The translations under genes and the position numbers were made by a program. The notes under the pieces are model-generated. The model searched no databases and had not been told where the DNA came from. It saw only the letters and a list, made by a program, of their open reading frames with translations. DNA of 64,000 nucleotides from Escherichia coli (GTDB lineage: Bacteria > Pseudomonadota > Gammaproteobacteria > Enterobacterales > Enterobacteriaceae): the NCBI RefSeq assembly GCF_003334815.1, contig NZ_QOWO01000016.1; one strand, given 5' to 3'. The stretch's first letter is position 1, and every line of letters starts with the position of its first letter. Shown here one piece after another: positions 3,138 through 23,935 of this stretch.

Positions 3138-4343
3138 ATGGCGGTAGATATTAAAGATGTCGAACAGGTCGCGCAGGAGCTGCAGCAGAAGTTTGACGAC
3201 TTCAAAGCAAAGAACGACAAGCGCGTGGATGCGATTGAGCAGGAAAAAGGCAAGCTTGCCGGGCAGGTGGAAACCCTGAACGGGAAACTCAGCGAGCTGG
3301 AAAATCTCAAAAGCGATCTTGAAAAAGAGCTGCTTGAGCTGAAACGTCCGGCAGGTGGCGCGCAAAATAAACTGGCCACCGAGCATAAAGAAGCGTTTGT
3401 GGGCTTTTTGCGTAAAGGCCGTGAAGATGGTCTGCGCGATCTGGAGCGTAAGGCATTGCAGGTGGGCACCGATGAAGACGGTGGCTATGCCGTGCCGGAA
3501 GCGCTGGATCGCAACATTCTCACCCTGCTGAAAGATGAAGTGGTGATGCGCCAGGAAGCCACGGTGATCACCGTTGGCGGTTCCGACTACAAAAAACTGG
3601 TGAATCTGGGCGGCACGGCTTCCGGATGGGTGGGGGAAACGGATACGCGATCCCAGACTGCCACCTCCAGACTGGAGCTGATTGAACCTCTCATGGGGGA
3701 AATCTACGGCAACCCGCAGGCCACCCAGAAAATGCTGGACGATGCCTTCTTCAACGTGGAGGCCTGGATCAACAGCGAGCTGGCAACCGAATTTGCCGAA
3801 CAGGAAGAAATTGCCTTTACCTCAGGCGATGGCACCAAGAAGCCGAAAGGGTTCCTGGCGTATGAATCCACGGATGAAACCGATAAGGTCCGGGCGTTCG
3901 GCAAACTTCAGCATATTGTATCCGGCGAAGCGACTGCGGTGACCGCAGACGCCATTATCAAACTGATTTACACGCTGCGTAAGGCACACCGCACTGGCGC
4001 GAAGTTCATGATGAACAACAACAGCCTGTTTGCCATCCGTCTGCTGAAAGACACCGAGGGTAACTATCTGTGGCGTCCGGGGCTGGAACTGGGGCAGCCG
4101 TCCTCTCTGGCGGGTTACGGTATCGCTGAAAACGAACAGATGCCGGATATCGCCGCTGATGCGAAAGCCATTGCATTTGGTAACTTCAAACGGGGTTACA
4201 CCATCGTTGACCGTATCGGCACCCGCATTCTGCGTGACCCGTACACCAATAAACCGTTTGTCGGTTTTTATACCACCAAGCGCACCGGCGGGATGCTGGT
4301 CGATTCGCAGGCCATCAAACTGCTGAAGATTGCAGCGGCGTAA
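3138..4343 (+). CDS. major capsid protein (HK97 family-like) with N-terminal coiled-coil delta domain
   Basis: 401-aa ORF after the protease. The first ~100 aa are charged and coiled-coil-like, as in an HK97 scaffold/delta domain. GAGAAA SD-like sequence before the ATG. Confidence 0.9.
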   Translation: MAVDIKDVEQVAQELQQKFDDFKAKNDKRVDAIEQEKGKLAGQVETLNGKLSELENLKSDLEKELLELKRPAGGAQNKLATEHKEAFVGFLRKGREDGLRDLERKALQVGTDEDGGYAVPEALDRNILTLLKDEVVMRQEATVITVGGSDYKKLVNLGGTASGWVGETDTRSQTATSRLELIEPLMGEIYGNPQATQKMLDDAFFNVEAWINSELATEFAEQEEIAFTSGDGTKKPKGFLAYESTDETDKVRAFGKLQHIVSGEATAVTADAIIKLIYTLRKAHRTGAKFMMNNNSLFAIRLLKDTEGNYLWRPGLELGQPSSLAGYGIAENEQMPDIAADAKAIAFGNFKRGYTIVDRIGTRILRDPYTNKPFVGFYTTKRTGGMLVDSQAIKLLKIAAA

Positions 4344-17882: not shown

Positions 17883-17936
17883 TGCAGAAATAACGAGCAA
17901 ATGGCATCATTCCTGCTTTTGTCAGGGAGATCTACT

Positions 17937-18491
17937 ATGCTTATTGGCTATGTACGTGTGTCAACAAATGACCAGAACACAGATCTACAACGTAATGCGC
18001 TGAACTGTGCAGGATGCGAGCTGATTTTTGAAGACAAGATAAGCGGTACAAAGTCCGAAAGGCCGGGACTGAAAAAACTGCTCAGGACATTATCGGCAGG
18101 TGACACTCTGGTTGTCTGGAAGCTGGATCGGCTGGGGCGTAGTATGCGGCATCTGGTCATTCTGGTTGAGGAGTTGCGCGAACGTGGCGTTAATTTTCGC
18201 AGCCTGACGGATGCTATTGATACCAGCACACCGATGGGGCGTTTTTTCTTTCATGTGATGGGTGCCCTGGCTGAAATGGAACGAGAACTGATTGTTGAAC
18301 GAACAAAAGCTGGACTGGAAGCTGCTCGCGCACAGGGACGAATTGGGGGACGTCGTCCCAAACTTACACCAGAACAATGGGCGCAGGCCGGGCGATTAAT
18401 TGCATCAGGCGTTCCTCGCCAGAAGGTGGCGATCATCTATGATGTTGGTGTATCGACACTGTATAAGAAGTTTCCGGTCGGAGATAAATGA
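17937..18491 (+). CDS. pin: serine DNA invertase (Pin/Gin/Cin/Hin family)
   Basis: MLIGYVRVSTNDQNTDLQRNAL... contains the catalytic Ser motif, with a C-terminal HTH. Near-identical to e14 PinE as I recall. I prefer ATG 17937 (GGGAGA SD) over the 17901 start in the track. Confidence 0.93.
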   Translation: MLIGYVRVSTNDQNTDLQRNALNCAGCELIFEDKISGTKSERPGLKKLLRTLSAGDTLVVWKLDRLGRSMRHLVILVEELRERGVNFRSLTDAIDTSTPMGRFFFHVMGALAEMERELIVERTKAGLEAARAQGRIGGRRPKLTPEQWAQAGRLIASGVPRQKVAIIYDVGVSTLYKKFPVGDK

Positions 18492-18590
18492 AACCGCAGG
18501 CTCGTCGTATGCAAGAAAGTGCTGCGGCTGGCTGGTTAACTTCCGATAGTGAGAGTATTGAATGATTTCCAGTCGTTATCGATTTTACGT
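18489..18590. repeat. 102-bp direct repeat, copy R1 (abuts the pin stop codon)
   Basis: TGAAACCGCAGGCTCGTCGTATGCAAGAAAGTGCTGCGG...GATTTTACGT. About 95/102 identical to 21774-21875 by hand alignment. Confidence 0.85.
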
Positions 18591-18849: not shown

Positions 18850-19104
18850 ATGGGTAAGATTATTCGGTGGATGCTTTTTTTTGTCGGATTATTTTCCGTT
18901 GCATATTCAATATATAAATATCAACAATCTCCGCAGAGTTTATTTTACATAATCGGTGCTATAGGAACACTTTTATCTGCTACATGTGGTTTACTTGAGA
19001 TAAAAAGCAAGAAATCGAATGGCAGTATAACTGCTGGCGACAACTCAAATATCGTTGTCATTAATGGTTCAGAAAACACATCAAAAATAAAAAATAGAGG
19101 GTGA
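18850..19104 (+). CDS. small two-TM membrane protein with polar GDNSN-motif tail (unknown function)
   Basis: 84-aa ORF with GAAGAGG SD 6 nt upstream. Hydrophobic helices at about residues 6-22 and 31-50. Very AT-rich codon usage. Its stop overlaps the next gene's start region. Confidence 0.65.
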   Translation: MGKIIRWMLFFVGLFSVAYSIYKYQQSPQSLFYIIGAIGTLLSATCGLLEIKSKKSNGSITAGDNSNIVVINGSENTSKIKNRG

Positions 19105-19106
19105 TT

Positions 19107-20042
19107 ATGTTTGATAAAGAGGTTAACTTAGGAGACAACTCAAACGTAGTAAAAACAGAAGGGAATAACAACACAACAATAATAAATAATTTTGATGAGA
19201 AGTTTATAGGTCACGTTGTAAGATCCATGCTTTATGAAAGTATGCCTTCCTTTCAAGAAGAAGCTAGAAAAAAGATAATTGCGTCAACTGATGAATACAT
19301 TAGAGAGCTAATATCTGAGTTAGTAATTCAAAAAACAGATGCAGATACATTAAACCAAAAACTATCAACGCCTGACGTTCAATACTCTCTTTTTGAATCA
19401 GCTAAATGTTTTGCAAAAAATCCAGAAAGAACAGCAAAATCAACTCTGTTAAATTTAGTTGTAAAAAAAATAAATGAATTGGATGGAGATCATGAAGAGC
19501 TTTCCTCTATCGATCTGGCAATAAACGTCGCTACAAAACTTAGCGTAAAGCAAATAAGGTATATATCTTTAATATACTATATTAAAGATATTGTAAAAAT
19601 ATCACAAGATAGTGCCGGCGCTTATTGCATAATAGATCCTTCAAAAGATACAACAGAAGAAGTTGACGATTTCTTTTTATTCCCAAATGATATAAAAAGG
19701 AACAAGCAGGATGTTTATGATCTTTATATCGATCTATATAACAATCAAATGGATGTTGTATTTAAAGATGAAGAGATTGGCCCAGTTGATTATAGTATGC
19801 TTATAGCATTGGGTTGTATCATTCAACCTGCATTCCCTCAGCGAACATTTGTACAAAATGTAAAGAAAAGAACAGGATTAGATTTAAACGACAGCGAACA
19901 AAAATTAAAGCTATCGACATTCATTGAGAAAATAGAAAAAGCTATAGAGATAGATTCTGTCGATTATATAGTATTAACTACGGTTGGTAGACAAATAGCT
20001 AACGCCTATATATCAACAAGAATGAGATTAGTTAACTTATAA
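19107..20042 (+). CDS. hypothetical soluble protein (~311 aa) with N-terminal GDNSN-motif; possible LPO_1073/Vpar_1526-like family (unverified recollection)
   Basis: Long ORF (track 19101..20042, GTG). I prefer ATG 19107 with AGAGGG SD 6 nt upstream. No TM segment. Followed by a strong terminator. Confidence 0.75.
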   Translation: MFDKEVNLGDNSNVVKTEGNNNTTIINNFDEKFIGHVVRSMLYESMPSFQEEARKKIIASTDEYIRELISELVIQKTDADTLNQKLSTPDVQYSLFESAKCFAKNPERTAKSTLLNLVVKKINELDGDHEELSSIDLAINVATKLSVKQIRYISLIYYIKDIVKISQDSAGAYCIIDPSKDTTEEVDDFFLFPNDIKRNKQDVYDLYIDLYNNQMDVVFKDEEIGPVDYSMLIALGCIIQPAFPQRTFVQNVKKRTGLDLNDSEQKLKLSTFIEKIEKAIEIDSVDYIVLTTVGRQIANAYISTRMRLVNL

Positions 20043-20103: not shown

Positions 20104-20250
20104 TTAAGAGTAGTGAACAAACCACTCGTCAGCAAACTCCCAAGTATCTTTCAGAGTCTCCTGAACAAAAGCCTTAGCAGAATCCTTATCTGCGGTGTAC
20201 GTAACAGGAAAATCATCGCTATGGTAGCTTTGACGCTCACCCCCATACCA
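20104..20250 (-). pseudogene. truncated DinI-like gene remnant (C-terminal ~45 codons, no start)
   Basis: Minus-strand translation is ...[37 protein letters not shown], which parallels the C-terminus of the intact gene at 21881-22129 (...[33 protein letters not shown]). There is no in-frame ATG, and an upstream in-frame stop lies at 20266-20268. Confidence 0.7.
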
Positions 20251-20401
20251 TAAAATATCAAGAGATTACGACTCATTTCCCCATGACTCTTCACCAACCA
20301 ACAGTTCTATCAACATAAGATGTAAACTCATAAACTAAGCAAGATAAAAAAATTAACAGAATTTTGTTGATTTCATGTCTGTGGAGTGTTAACTTAAAAT
20401 G

Positions 20402-20423
20402 AGACCTGAAGTACTGAAGGTCT
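20402..20423. promoter_or_regulatory. 22-bp imperfect dyad in the 5' leader of the XRE gene (candidate operator)
   Basis: AGACCTGAAGTACTGAAGGTCT has 18/22 positions dyad-symmetric around AGTACT. It lies 22 nt upstream of ATG 20446. Confidence 0.35.
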
Positions 20424-20445
20424 TTGACACACTGGAGAAGCAACT

Positions 20446-20805
20446 ATGTTAACGCCGTTTGGTAAGACAGTAAGAAAAATGCGCATAGACTTGGGGCTTA
20501 CGCTTAAAAGCATGGCTGAGGCTATGGGCATGACCTCGTCTTATCTTTCAGCGATCGAAACTGGTAAAAGGGCGGTCACTAAGCCCGTGCTTGATAGCAT
20601 CATTAGCTATTTTAATGCGGATGAAAAACAAAAAGAAAAGCTTATCAGTGCAGCTCGTGACTCTCAGCAGTCAGTAGAGATCAGCTTGTCAGGTAAGAAT
20701 GGCCACGCTCGTGAAGTCGCAATTGCGTTCGCTCGTAGTTTTGATGAATTAAATGAAGAAGACTTCCGTAATTTACGACAGATTTTGAATCGAAAACAGC
20801 AGTAG
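20446..20805 (+). CDS. XRE-family helix-turn-helix transcriptional regulator
   Basis: 119 aa. The N-terminus FGKTVRKMRIDLGLTLKSMAEAMGMTSSYLSAIETGKRAVT is a classic Cro/C1 HTH. GGAGAAG SD upstream. Confidence 0.85.
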   Translation: MLTPFGKTVRKMRIDLGLTLKSMAEAMGMTSSYLSAIETGKRAVTKPVLDSIISYFNADEKQKEKLISAARDSQQSVEISLSGKNGHAREVAIAFARSFDELNEEDFRNLRQILNRKQQ

Positions 20806-20813
20806 GAGGCGGC

Positions 20814-21335
20814 TTGAGCGGACAAGATTATCGTGTACCTCCGCAGAATCGTGAATCAATACGTTCTATCGTCACATCTCTGCGGAGCGCATTTGGTATT
20901 ACTGGGCTTAAATTCCCTGTAATGGAGGTAATTGAGTTCGCATTGCCTCAGTTGATCCCGGATTTTGAGTTCCACATTGGTGGCATGAAAGAAATGGGAG
21001 AAACGCATGGTCTTACGTACCCACAGGAACATTTATTGATTCTGCGCGAAGACATTTACGAAGGCGCTTTGAATGGGGTAGGGCGAGATAGGATGACTGC
21101 CGCGCATGAATTGGGTCATCTTCTTATGCACAGGAACATCGCATTTGCTCGTTCTGCCCCAGGGGTAAAAATCCGCCCTTTTGAGAGTAGTGAATGGCAA
21201 GCTAAATGTTTTAGTGGTGAGTTATTAGTGCCGGCTATGCATGTCAGTATTTTAAAAGGTATGACGGCTGAGGATGTTGCTAAGGCATGCGGAGTTTCAT
21301 TAGTGGCAGCGCGTTATCAGCTAGACAGAATGTAA
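20814..21335 (+). CDS. ImmA/IrrE-family zinc metallopeptidase (COG2856-type, HEXXH)
   Basis: 173 aa. Contains ...MTAAHELGHLLMH... (HEXXH) plus a downstream E (FSGELLVP). TTG start at 20814 with AGGAGG at 20804-20809, which overlaps the XRE stop and implies coupling. Confidence 0.82.
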   Translation: MSGQDYRVPPQNRESIRSIVTSLRSAFGITGLKFPVMEVIEFALPQLIPDFEFHIGGMKEMGETHGLTYPQEHLLILREDIYEGALNGVGRDRMTAAHELGHLLMHRNIAFARSAPGVKIRPFESSEWQAKCFSGELLVPAMHVSILKGMTAEDVAKACGVSLVAARYQLDRM

Positions 21336-21492
21336 AAACCCCTTGCTTGGCGCCAACCAGTGCAAGGGGCTTTAGGTGATGAATCCAAGAGGCATCACCA
21401 CCGTGAACAGCTTCGATAGACAGCCTGAAATTAACACCTTCAGGGAAGATGTTCAAGGGAAAAATCTCTCTTGGTAAGGAGGTGTTTTATGA

Positions 21493-21642
21493 ATGGGTTT
21501 GAAATCAATTGCTTCAAAAGCGGCGCCCAAAGGGTTCCGTTGGGTTTTCTGCCGTTACCGCAAGGTGCGTGGGAAATCAAAAAAAGTCCTTGATGCTCAT
21601 GATTACGGGTACGAGGCGTGGGCATTTTTAGTGCGCTGCTAA
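21493..21642 (+). CDS. untracked small basic protein (49 aa), unknown function
   Basis: My translation: MGLKSIASKAAPKGFRWVFCRYRKVRGKSKKVLDAHDYGYEAWAFLVRC* (12 K/R vs 3 D/E). AAGGAGG at 21476-21482. Stop is 13 nt before a strong terminator. An alternative ATG at 21489 gives a 34-aa ORF in another frame. Confidence 0.45.
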   Translation: MGLKSIASKAAPKGFRWVFCRYRKVRGKSKKVLDAHDYGYEAWAFLVRC

Positions 21643-21654
21643 GGGTTAGTATTT

Positions 21655-21678
21655 AAGGCACCTGCGGGTGCCTTTTTT
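21655..21678 (+). terminator. rho-independent terminator
   Basis: AAGGCACC-tgcg-GGTGCCTT followed by TTTTT. Confidence 0.72.
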
Positions 21679-21773
21679 GTATCCTCTGACCCGATTGGTG
21701 TCTTGCTGAGCCTGATAACTACCAATTTTTGTTATTACTATTCTACTATCGCTCAATCATGATTGGCGGGAGT

Positions 21774-21875
21774 TGAAACCGCAGGCACGTCGTATGCAAG
21801 AACGTGCTGCGGCTGGCTGGTGAACTTCCGATAGTGCGAGTATTGAATGATTTCCAGCCGTTACAGATTTTACGT
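21774..21875. repeat. 102-bp direct repeat, copy R2 (ends 5 nt before the DinI-like gene stop)
   Basis: TGAAACCGCAGGCACGTCGTATGCAAGAACGTGCTGCGG...GATTTTACGT. See R1. Confidence 0.85.
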
Positions 21876-21880
21876 GCTAA

Positions 21881-22129
21881 TTAGTGAACAAACCACTCGT
21901 CAGCAGACTCCCAGGTATCTTTCAGAGTTTCCTGAACAAAAGTTTTAGCTGAATCTTTATCGGCGGTGCGCGTAACAGAAAGGCCATCGTTGCTGGTGGC
22001 TTTTACGATCACCTCTACATCGTCATAACGCTTACTGATGCGTCGAGTTAATTCTTCCTTTAACGCATCCACAGCACCGTTTGGCATTTTAGTCATTTTC
22101 TCTTTAGCTATGCAGATCTCAATACGCAT
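21881..22129 (-). CDS. DinI-family DNA-damage-inducible protein (prophage-encoded)
   Basis: 82 aa, [11 protein letters not shown]...[16 protein letters not shown]. Same length class and C-terminal motif as E. coli DinI. Two LexA boxes lie immediately upstream. Confidence 0.88.
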
Positions 22130-22142
22130 AAAAATCCCTCTA

Positions 22143-22162
22143 CACTGTGTTTGTATACAGTG
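22143..22162. promoter_or_regulatory. LexA (SOS) box 1
   Basis: CACTGTGTTTGTATACAGTG fits CTGT-N8-ACAG. It lies 14 nt upstream of the DinI-like start codon. Confidence 0.72.
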
Positions 22163-22170
22163 TTATTTTT

Positions 22171-22190
22171 AACTGTATAAATAAACAGTG
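22171..22190. promoter_or_regulatory. LexA (SOS) box 2
   Basis: AACTGTATAAATAAACAGTG fits CTGT-N8-ACAG. It lies 8 nt from box 1. Confidence 0.72.
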
Positions 22191-22348
22191 TCAATGGAAC
22201 AAAGATTGCTGCATGTACAAATGTTCTTTGGCTACAAATACACCTACTGATCATGTTCTGCTATGCTCTGATACCTCCAAAATGTACAATCAGCGGCATG
22301 AATTTTTCTTTGTACATATGATTGTACATAATTAAAGAGACAACAATT

Positions 22349-23935
22349 ATGACAAGCCTTTTGGCCGCAGAGGTAGCGAAAAGAAGAACCTTTGCAATTA
22401 TTTCTCACCCGGACGCCGGTAAAACTACCATCACCGAGAAGGTGCTGCTGTTCGGACAGGCCATTCAGACCGCCGGTACAGTAAAAGGCCGTGGCTCTAA
22501 CCAGCACGCTAAGTCGGACTGGATGGAGATGGAAAAGCAGCGTGGGATCTCCATTACCACGTCTGTGATGCAGTTTCCGTATCACGACTGCCTGGTTAAC
22601 CTGCTCGACACCCCGGGGCACGAAGACTTCTCGGAAGATACCTATCGTACCCTGACGGCGGTGGACTGCTGCCTGATGGTTATCGACGCTGCAAAAGGTG
22701 TTGAAGATCGTACCCGCAAGCTGATGGAAGTTACCCGTCTGCGCGACACGCCGATCCTCACCTTTATGAACAAACTTGACCGTGATATCCGCGACCCGAT
22801 GGAGCTGCTCGATGAAGTTGAGAACGAGCTGAAAATCGGCTGTGCACCGATCACCTGGCCGATTGGCTGCGGCAAGCTGTTTAAAGGCGTTTACCACCTT
22901 TATAAAGATGAAACCTATCTCTATCAGAGCGGTAAAGGCCACACCATTCAGGAAGTCCGCATTGTTAAAGGGCTGAATAACCCGGATCTCGACGCTGCGG
23001 TTGGTGAAGATCTGGCGCAGCAGCTGCGTGATGAACTGGAGCTGGTGAAAGGCGCGTCTAACGAGTTCGACAAAGAATTGTTCCTTGCGGGCGAAATCAC
23101 TCCGGTATTCTTCGGTACTGCGCTGGGTAACTTCGGCGTTGATCATATGCTGGATGGCCTGGTGGAGTGGGCACCTGCGCCGATGCCGCGTCAGACTGAT
23201 ACCCGTACTGTAGAAGCGAGCGAAGACAAATTTACCGGCTTCGTATTTAAAATTCAGGCCAACATGGACCCGAAACACCGTGACCGCGTGGCGTTTATGC
23301 GCGTGGTATCCGGTAAATATGAAAAAGGCATGAAGCTGCGCCAGGTGCGCACTGCGAAAGATGTGGTGATCTCCGACGCGCTGACCTTTATGGCGGGCGA
23401 CCGTTCGCACGTTGAAGAAGCGTATCCGGGCGATATCCTCGGCCTGCATAACCACGGCACTATTCAGATCGGCGACACCTTTACCCAGGGTGAGATGATG
23501 AAGTTCACTGGTATTCCGAACTTCGCGCCGGAACTGTTCCGTCGTATCCGCCTGAAAGATCCGCTGAAGCAAAAACAGCTGCTCAAAGGGCTGGTACAGC
23601 TTTCCGAAGAGGGCGCGGTGCAGGTGTTCCGTCCGATCTCCAACAACGACCTGATCGTTGGTGCAGTTGGTGTGCTGCAGTTTGATGTGGTGGTATCGCG
23701 CCTGAAGAGCGAATACAACGTTGAAGCAGTGTATGAGTCAGTCAACGTTGCCACTGCCCGCTGGGTAGAATGTGCGGACGCGAAGAAATTCGAAGAGTTC
23801 AAGCGTAAGAACGAAAGCCAACTGGCGCTTGATGGCGGCGATAACCTCGCTTACATCGCTACCAGCATGGTAAACCTGCGCCTGGCGCAGGAACGTTATC
23901 CGGACGTTCAGTTCCACCAGACCCGCGAGCATTAA
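22349..23935 (+). CDS. prfC: peptide chain release factor 3 (RF3), with altered extreme N-terminus
   Basis: From residue ~9 onward ([20 protein letters not shown]...) it matches K-12 PrfC as I recall. I prefer ATG 22349 ([13 protein letters not shown]...), giving 528 aa. Confidence 0.93.

Follow-up and report, generated by a model that had tools for sequence, protein, structure and literature searches.

The closest described relatives of the system studied here are pairs of an XRE-type repressor and a zinc metalloprotease. CapP cleaves CapH upon binding of single-stranded DNA (ssDNA), and ImmA and IrrE act likewise (PMC13228613; 10.1101/2022.04.27.489752). CapP and IrrE consist of three domains, namely a peptidase domain, a helix-turn-helix (HTH)-like linker and a GAF domain, with ssDNA lying between the peptidase and GAF domains; some CapP proteins, about a third, also carry a cysteine switch, which is optional in the family (10.1101/2022.04.27.489752; PMC13228613). 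In this study, we analyzed a 64,000-nucleotide stretch of the Escherichia coli chromosome (assembly GCF_003334815.1, contig NZ_QOWO01000016.1; hereafter the window), in which an XRE-ImmA gene pair is followed by a structured leader RNA and a gene for a 49-aa mini-protein. We found that the mini-protein is probably the output of the pair, and that the combination of operator, xre-immA, double-pseudoknot leader and PHROG 33859 mini-protein is a unit not described before; a literature search on the protein accession and on ImmA together with the RNA motif found no report. Positions are those of the window, and features are on the plus strand unless otherwise stated.

The xre gene (20446-20805) encodes a 119-aa Cro/C1-type repressor (Pfam HTH_31, 9e-11; HTH_3, 2e-10), and the immA-like gene (20814-21335) encodes a 173-aa Zn metalloprotease that matches Pfam Peptidase_M78 (PF06114) at 5e-9, above the gathering score. 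The two genes are separated by 8 nt, as the TAG stop codon of xre is located at 20803-20805 and the TTG start codon of immA at 20814, and an AGGAGG Shine-Dalgarno (SD) sequence at 20804-20809 overlaps the xre stop codon. The original prediction had described this arrangement, including the AAHELGHLLMH motif of the protease, and each of its elements was found in place, in agreement with the Pfam matches. The TTG start is supported by the N-terminus MSG, which is shared by nearly all members of a 31-sequence family alignment. In the same alignment, H98, E99, H102 and E127 are invariant, so that an HEXXH motif and a downstream Glu are both present within the M78 domain. The XRE protein matches the PADLOC capH model at 3.6e-10 over residues 2-116 of 119, and its C-terminal helical domain is conserved and CapH/ImmR-like. 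By homology, the two proteins appear to be an ordinary member of the known repressor-protease kind, in which XRE is the predicted cleavage substrate.

Comparison with the ImmR/ImmA systems of ICEBs1 and phi105 (Bacillus subtilis) revealed a close similarity in layout and size, as an XRE gene is followed there by a gene for a single-domain M78 protein of ~170 aa within one autoregulated operon of a mobile element. The E. coli genes likewise qualify as adjacent and co-transcribed, given the 8-nt gap, the SD sequence over the stop codon and the finding that, in 163 of 244 loci from several phyla, an ImmA gene of this family is directly preceded by a full-length XRE gene. By analogy, the same logic is expected, whereby stress leads the protease to cleave the repressor. 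In contrast to ImmR/ImmA, the E. coli pair is not the master switch of its element but is found at moron positions, and it appears to have one mini-protein, preceded by a structured leader, as its sole output.

The best match of ImmA in the PDB by sequence was CapP (7t5t, 3e-14), although only profile positions 81-171 were aligned (CapP residues 81-182), and the PADLOC capP model matched at 5e-11. CapH/CapP pairs regulate CBASS, which defends against phages by signaling with cyclic oligonucleotides, and other defence operons, e.g. in E. coli MS115-1 and Thauera. The catalytic residues H98/E99/H102/E127 correspond to H97/E98/H101/E128 of CapP, and both systems are portable regulators beside variable cargo. 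The structures differ: the window protease has 173 aa and CapP 291 aa, and the former contains a peptidase domain and a short HTH-like tail and ends there. It therefore lacks a GAF domain and, with it, the ssDNA groove between peptidase and GAF domains. No Cys is present between H102 and E127 of the window protease, which has no cysteine-switch loop. Furthermore, the window pair is co-directional with one 49-aa cargo gene, whereas CapH/CapP is typically divergent from a multi-gene immune system. The window protease is thus predicted to work like CapP while falling outside the CapP type, being ImmA-sized. IrrE (PprI), which acts with DdrO in Deinococcus, belongs to the same M78 family (3dte, 3e-4) and shares the logic of XRE-repressor cleavage; however, it is chromosomally encoded, has three domains and controls a DNA-repair regulon, in contrast to the two-domain protease of a mobile cassette found here.

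The pair had been described as stand-alone, which the genomic comparisons contradicted, since a third gene travels with it. Among 131 loci with at least 1.3 kb of sequence upstream of the small gene, an ImmA gene was located within 600 nt upstream and in the same direction in 106, with a spacing of ~120-185 nt. In scans of metagenomes and IMG/VR anchored on the small protein, the ImmA family was found directly upstream in 121 of 158 loci. A scan anchored on ImmA, with one genome per species, revealed ~44 loci with a full-length XRE gene directly upstream in Gammaproteobacteria, Clostridia, Spirochaetota, Planctomycetia, Synergistota and Eggerthella; at the proteobacterial loci and those of Synergistota, the pair was followed by the small gene at a distance of ~140-225 nt. 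The proposed check of genes downstream of homologous pairs therefore gave a positive result, the same small gene recurring, though not at all XRE-ImmA loci. In 13 of 5,426 complete E. coli genomes the module was present, always as a three-gene unit.

A second association was found on ColE1-type plasmids of 4.6-8.8 kb, where an operon consisting of a YjzC-like gene, a leader and the small gene is divergent, across a long perfect palindrome, from an HTH gene and a gene for a 254-aa M78 protein that are unrelated to the window pair beyond the motif level. This is the classical CapH/CapP arrangement, here formed by a distant HTH/M78 pair. As the mini-protein has been captured twice independently by XRE/M78 pairs, we argue that it is a regulated output. 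The suggestion that the small basic downstream open reading frame (ORF) is the cargo is hence strongly supported, both by the linkage in 106 of 131 loci and by the plasmid operon. One such plasmid, of 4.6 kb from K. pneumoniae (L255, 2185-4174), carries an unannotated mini-protein gene at 3793-3924 together with a 60-aa YjzC-like gene, a 59-aa membrane ORF after the mini-protein gene, HTH and M78 genes of 97 and 254 aa, and a 52-nt perfect palindrome at ~3320-3371; E. coli pLST424C-10 (L256) is a further small ColE1-type plasmid with an unannotated mini-protein gene.

The small gene (21493-21642) encodes a basic, all-β protein of 49 aa that matches phrog_33859 over its full length (1.5e-26), and the cassette is closed by an intrinsic terminator (21655-21684) with an 8-bp GC-rich stem followed by TTTTTG. 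Identity at the three codon positions was 0.76, 0.82 and 0.41, and 14977 synonymous versus 10401 non-synonymous changes were counted in frame, in comparison with 1922 versus 24433 (~1 to 13) out of frame. The small gene is coding and under purifying selection. Its product is much better conserved than the regulators: at a Vibrio locus the small protein is 78% identical, XRE 39% and ImmA 29%, and small proteins from phages and plasmids of different orders are 70-80% identical. An exhaustive HMMER search recovered 101 clusters at 50% identity, essentially all of which were free-standing proteins of 41-100 aa; a few calls were longer, apparently because starts had been mis-called or ORFs had run together. 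Divergent versions, e.g. MWIFTAYITQKDGTRIYARDYGKRAFRIWV, follow the pair in Clostridia. The AlphaFold2 (AF2) model is a confidently predicted small all-β fold with a predicted local distance difference test (pLDDT) score of 89.7. PHROG 33859 has no annotated function, the structure had no match in the PDB or BFVD, and the sequence had none in Pfam, NCBIfam, PADLOC or the PDB. The gene is often uncalled in public annotations, as at L245 (8679-8828) and L250 (~8696); at these two loci, the leader model described below (134 and 110 bits, respectively) ends where the small gene of annotated relatives starts.

The spacer between immA and the small gene keeps a constant architecture in distant taxa while its sequence changes. 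In the window it holds a structured leader RNA of ~125 nt (21366-21493; fold z = -3.25) with the helices P1 (21375-21381/21393-21399), P2 (21401-21408/21451-21458), P2b (21411-21414/21445-21448) and P3 (21424-21429/21439-21444). A pseudoknot is formed by the P1 loop (21385-21391, CCAAGAG) and CTCTTGG at 21468-21474, the 7 nt just 5' of the SD sequence of the small gene. This SD sequence, TAAGGAGGTG (21475-21484), is a full anti-SD complement, and GGTGTT of the SD region can pair with the P3 loop (AACACC, 21433-21438). A covariance model was built from a 20-sequence seed (A4; model R1) and taken through a second round (R2), and the window leader scored 134.8 and 123.8 bits, respectively. Nearly all R1 and R2 matches end at the start of a small gene, with four weak or artefactual ones elsewhere, and those from outside the training set included Aeromonas L250, Aliidiomarina L009, the Acinetobacter plasmid L257, L123 and L223.

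Covariation supported this structure. In an alignment of 48 leaders, 84.6% of the cells assigned to pairs were paired, compared with 56.2% after shuffling (0 of 500 shuffles as high) and at most 44% when the partners were slid, and the covariation score was 0.574 versus 0.169 for shuffled sequences. By element, the paired fraction was 95.7% for P1, 92.8% for P2 and 81.8% for the pseudoknot, and compensatory changes were observed at all 31 leader pairs of these sequences. In most of 68 representatives, the best complement of the pre-SD segment was the P1 loop (mean 6.64 versus 5.72 ± 0.13 permuted). Similarly, an anti-SD-like segment 35-45 nt upstream complements the SD sequence and its 3' flank (mean 6.08 versus 5.17 shuffled) and covaries with the flank, as seen in the pairs GGTGTT/AACACC, GGTGAC/GTCATTTCC and TGGAGGTGTG/CACACCTCCA. 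Given these two pairings, of the P1 loop to the pre-SD segment and of the anti-SD-like P3 loop to the SD region, the simplest reading is a ribosome-binding site (RBS) that would be locked by default. A cmscan of 20200-21800 against Rfam at E ≤ 10 gave nothing overlapping the leader, which we regard as a candidate new RNA motif.

The original prediction had proposed 21440-21490 for protein binding; this region instead consists of RNA helices of the leader. Within the leader, the dyad CCTGAA-N9-TTCAGG (21424-21444), which shares a half-site with a 22-bp dyad upstream of xre, was considered as a second operator and rejected; it is the RNA helix P3, because its stems covary and its loop is conserved. 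A leader peptide encoded by the ORF at 21379-21477 was rejected because it is not conserved in L005 or L039, and the alternative minimum-free-energy hairpin CAAGGGA/UCUCUUG was found, on reading the aligned sequences, not to be conserved beyond the enteric lineage. Upstream of these elements, a further hairpin with 12-nt arms (21335-21373; 92% complementary, without a T-run) directly follows the immA stop codon, and a hairpin of other sequence occupies the same place in distant loci. The terminator scan did not call the window hairpin, which may be a partial terminator or a stabiliser.

The predicted lock resembles that of the mRNAs of small toxins induced by the SOS response (tisB, dinQ and hok-type), which are translationally inert, their RBS being sequestered by long-range pairing within the 5' leader. 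Those toxins are hydrophobic membrane peptides under antisense RNAs and LexA; the mini-protein, in contrast, is basic and looks soluble, its locus shows no evident antisense RNA, and control would lie with XRE/ImmA.

At the other end of the cassette, a palindrome AAATTAAC-N8-GTTGATTT (20350-20373; in full AAATTAAC-AGAATTTT-GTTGATTT) is the likely XRE operator. Of 122 distinct regions upstream of XRE genes, 60 contained the pattern T[CT]AAC-N5-10-GTTGA, for which 0.0275 occurrences per 220 nt are expected (~18-fold enrichment). It was found in Gammaproteobacteria, Alphaproteobacteria, Clostridia and Synergistota, and the XRE recognition helix TSSYLSAIETGKR is conserved across the loci bearing it. 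The palindrome overlaps a putative sigma-70 promoter (20367-20395), whose -35 hexamer TTGATT (20367-20372) sits within the right arm of the operator and is followed by a 17-nt spacer and TGn-TAACTT with the -10 hexamer at 20390-20395. This promoter was assigned by reading the sequence and was not called by a consensus promoter scan; the same layout recurs in relatives. It predicts a transcription start near 20402.

The 22-bp dyad in the xre leader (20402-20423), which had been put forward as an autoregulatory operator, is indeed present, as an imperfect dyad with 9 of 11 positions complementary, and it begins at the predicted +1. Its function as an operator did not hold up. In nine relatives, the six outer pairs were 100% paired, three of the six had changed on both sides and G-U pairs were present; the arms vary (AGACCT/AGGTCT, AGAGTC/GACTCT, GAGCCGAAA/TTTCGGC) while self-complementarity is kept, among relatives with an identical XRE helix-turn-helix. 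Because the arms covary and include G-U pairs although the XRE recognition helix is identical, the dyad most likely forms a 5'-terminal stem-loop in the xre transcript. Hairpins are general at this place, with a mean z of -1.24 over 44 non-redundant leaders. A second dyad repeats the operator sequence in some Clostridial loci and may be a second operator there. For an electrophoretic mobility shift assay (EMSA) of XRE binding, the site of choice is accordingly 20350-20373 rather than the 22-bp dyad. LexA control of xre was ruled out, as a scan of the 64-kb window for CTGT-N8-ACAG revealed no LexA box in the xre promoter region.

Taken together, we propose that XRE/ImmA serves as the input side of a portable cassette of prophages and plasmids that has three parts, is autorepressed and derepressed by cleavage, and has a translationally locked mini-protein as its output; we give this reading a probability of about one half. 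In a resting lysogen, XRE dimers on the palindrome over the -35 hexamer would repress their own operon, i.e. xre-immA-(hairpin)-leader-small gene. A stress cue would activate the ImmA-like Zn protease, leading to cleavage of XRE and derepression of the operon; if the system behaves like ImmR/ImmA, DdrO/IrrE and CapH/CapP, DNA damage or infection-derived ssDNA would be this cue. Transcripts reading through the post-immA hairpin would then carry the ~125-nt leader, in which pairing of the P1 loop with the 7 nt 5' of the SD sequence and the anti-SD mimic of P3 would lock the RBS and gate translation of the 49-aa protein a second time. The mini-protein is extremely well conserved across phyla, basic, apparently subject to two layers of control and present on tiny plasmids, as would suit an effector that has a conserved target and does harm when its expression leaks. 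Such features suggest that it probably binds a universal cellular or nucleic-acid target; that it arrests growth or blocks an infecting phage is our guess. The anatomy, the gene linkage, the intact catalytic residues, the operator conservation, the RNA covariation and the purifying selection on the small gene are results of the analysis; repression, XRE cleavage, RBS occlusion in vivo and effector activity are predictions of the model.

Several observations weigh against this model. The protease has neither the GAF domain nor the cysteine switch used by CapP and IrrE for ssDNA sensing, and its trigger may therefore differ. The post-immA hairpin could terminate most transcripts, the small gene might have its own promoter, and a pattern scan of the cargo region revealed no XRE operator next to the small gene; the single other match was at 19650, inside the LPO_1073 coding sequence. 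For the mini-protein, neither a structural match nor a homologue of known function was detected, which makes its role as effector or toxin a guess. The linkage is also not obligatory. In the remaining loci (~19%), the small gene follows a protein of ~180 aa from PHROG 2602 at the same spacing, or a YjzC-like gene. Conversely, a recognizable small-protein homologue was found in at least 15 of 33 full-length XRE-ImmA loci, and different genes lie downstream in the others.

The PHROG 2602 protein, which has no known function and weakly resembles an integrase SAM-like domain, precedes the small gene at loci L125, L131, L136, L140, L143, L151, L225-L227, L232-L235 and L238-L244. Model R1 gave no significant match on the leaders of these loci or of the small plasmids. 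On manual reading only, the leaders of both groups showed a loop pairing with the pre-SD segment, and those of the PHROG 2602 loci appeared to be a related but distinct variant, with a conserved GGAAT...CCCAC/GTAGTGGATTCC and a bulge in place of a hairpin loop as the partner of the pre-SD segment. In Clostridia, two other types of cargo follow XRE-ImmA, namely a very basic 39-57 aa ORF with a small CxxC...CxxC zinc-ribbon protein, and a protein of ~220-270 aa (GCKDVFHAF...), at loci L027, L032, L043 and L018, L022, L023, L029, L041. This other cargo suggests that the pair may serve generally as an input module to which different outputs can be attached. A more far-reaching version of our model, which we hold only tentatively, is that the leader represents a new class of RBS-locking regulatory RNA responding to a ligand, a protein or processing, that the 49-aa protein acts as a new effector with universal portability, placed under two keys (the protease-cleaved repressor and the double-pseudoknot lock) because it hits a core conserved bacterial machine, and that XRE/ImmA is one of at least three interchangeable input modules.

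The positions of the cassette in its hosts indicated an accessory role. Aeromonas lambdoid prophages carry the module within the nin region, flanked by a Bro-N gene and DUF968/Q, and possess an S24 cI, Cro and CII of their own. The Klebsiella copy is at the tail end and adjoins a P4-like element, and the copy of E. coli ECONIH4 neighbours the integrase of a different prophage. Genes of the cI-like and KilA-N types were found near the small gene in some viral contigs. Among sequenced phages the single match was Escherichia phage Phi06_2987 S. The cassette also resides on large Acinetobacter plasmids, and plasmid matches comprised 15 from Acinetobacter and 5 from Legionella; on the Acinetobacter plasmid pDETAB2 (L257, 3955-5150), the full XRE-ImmA-leader-mini-protein cassette is near DUF6685 and ThiF-family genes. 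Homology to 89%-identical copies in other prophage contexts stops at ~21677, and the cassette moves as a unit between unrelated E. coli prophage sites. Owing to the nin and prophage-end positions, the carriers' own S24 cI and the occurrence on plasmids, the cassette is a moron-type accessory rather than a lysis-lysogeny switch. This bears out the earlier view of an ImmA-type protease with its cognate XRE as a second switch, not the master one.

In the window, the cassette belongs to a prophage of the myovirus type (baseplate J, YmfQ, invertible tail-fibre genes), which includes the pinE invertase (17901-18491) and abuts prfC (22322-23935) and osmY. As had been predicted, the cassette occupies the far end of the prophage and neighbours dinI (21881-22129, minus strand; Pfam DinI, 1e-19), a gene under SOS control whose promoter is overlapped by the sole two LexA boxes (CTGT-N8-ACAG) of the window, at 22145-22160 and 22173-22188; one of these boxes was called as a terminator-like hairpin by the terminator scan. 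On the minus strand at 21646-21758, just downstream of the cassette terminator and on the opposite strand to it, there is a sub-threshold Rfam match to the enterobacterial small RNA STnc130 (30.2 bits versus a gathering score of 55; E = 0.04).

The cargo between pin and the DinI-family gene is composed of two modules, A and B, the latter being the xre-immA cassette. Module A (18850-20042) encodes an 84-aa membrane ORF and a 313-aa protein of the LPO_1073/Vpar_1526 family (NCBIfam, 3e-24), and its proteins had no match in Pfam or PADLOC. A truncated dinI remnant (20111-20218, minus strand) with 87% identity to the 3' end of the intact dinI is located between the modules, and a 102-nt direct repeat (18489-18590 and 21774-21875; 93% identity) flanks the entire cargo. 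Module A without B was found in the same pin-dinI slot of E. coli E600003 (L002), and module B without A, 99.8% identical, in E. coli 510016 (L001); none of the 5,426 complete E. coli genomes contained both at ≥80% cover. As the modules are found apart and never together in complete genomes, A and B are cassettes that exist independently of each other, and their slot is a hot-spot for cargo. The dinI remnant and the repeat look like recombination scars, and the A + B arrangement of the window would be a tandem recombinant of two prophage variants. Control of the LPO_1073 operon by XRE was rejected: the AT-rich upstream operon had been named as a target, and it has no operator-like site at its promoter and occurs separately from the cassette in E. 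coli. In 510016 (L001, 3101-5777), an IS1-disrupted reverse transcriptase and SLATT-domain system lies directly upstream of the XRE-ImmA cassette and divergent from it, in the same slot, which fits a hot-spot for defence cargo.

Among the other explanations, the one that survives best, though we consider it unlikely, is a split toxin-antitoxin system of the Rosmer type, in which the mini-protein would be a toxin and XRE and ImmA would jointly act as the fused RmrA/RipB antitoxin does, through repression of the toxin, its degradation or the two combined, in addiction or abortive infection. RosmerTA (RmrT/RmrA; RipA/RipB in S. pneumoniae) combines an HTH and Zn-peptidase antitoxin with a small or unknown toxin. 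The explanation is possible because the PADLOC RmrA models match both window proteins in parts, their N-terminal part matching XRE and their C-terminal part ImmA; in addition, the NCBIfam 'spr1629 family repressor/antitoxin' model matches ImmA. The toxins of Rosmer systems vary and their fold is unknown; one of them, RipA, acts on the sliding clamp, which is conserved (PMC12795458; 10.1101/2022.05.11.491447). The presence of the cassette on 4-9 kb plasmids and at prophage moron positions makes a role in defence or plasmid maintenance plausible, and a doubly locked RBS suits a toxic product. The layout differs, however, as RmrA/RipB is a single fused protein encoded downstream of the toxin within the same operon (PMC12795458), whereas here two separate regulator genes lie upstream, followed by the hairpin, the leader and the small gene. 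Moreover, the 19% of small genes without an M78 partner would be toxins without an antitoxin.

Less probable is that the mini-protein is an antirepressor or regulator that would switch resident or co-resident prophages to lytic growth, with XRE/ImmA as a LexA-independent trigger, in the manner of modules of a transcription factor and a small ORF (TF-smORF modules) or of the far-end Tum and Gifsy antirepressors. The location of the module at the far end of the prophage beside the SOS-controlled dinI, and of the small gene near cI-like and KilA-N genes in some viral contigs, would agree with this, as would the control of element induction by ImmR/ImmA itself. Phage TF-smORF modules that inactivate cI are documented, and there, too, an XRE-type regulator adjoins an unannotated ORF of ~50 codons that is the real output (Silpe et al. 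2023, PMC10432266). Those transcription factors, however, activate divergent, phage-specific antirepressor smORFs without homologues, and no protease or structured leader is involved (PMC10432266); the mini-protein gene is co-directional with xre, and its product, with 101 clusters at the 50% identity level, keeps 70-80% identity between orders and occurs in unrelated phage types. It is also encoded on 4.6-kb non-phage plasmids, and a simple antirepressor needs no structure-locked RBS. Just as improbable is a merely positional linkage, with XRE-ImmA regulating itself or acting in trans as a decoy or immunity function against related phages and the small gene with its leader being an independent moron, since the hairpin between immA and the leader, the lack of an operator near the small gene and the exchange of partners on both sides are outweighed by the co-directional adjacency at ~120-185 nt in 106 of 131 loci, its maintenance across phyla while the regulators diverge to ~30% identity, and the plasmid operons, in which an unrelated HTH/M78 pair has become associated with the small gene a second time and independently. 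The decoy or immunity suggestion of the original prediction gained no support from the analysis; a role as a defence sensor, also suggested there, may apply.

The cassette model bears on a wider group of regulators, as XRE and M78 pairs are abundant on mobile elements and the output they regulate is mostly unknown; the pair described here has a defined, testable candidate. Conservation of the mini-protein extends from Enterobacteria as far as Synergistota, divergent forms occur in Clostridia, and annotation pipelines often miss it; the covariation-supported RNA structure predicted to bury its RBS was previously undescribed. The operator and the leader may offer ready-made parts for stress-inducible, tightly off expression. 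If the mini-protein is indeed a growth-arrest or anti-phage effector, the cassette would be a very compact inducible defence or addiction system, and the mini-protein would be a new small-protein inhibitor of a conserved target.

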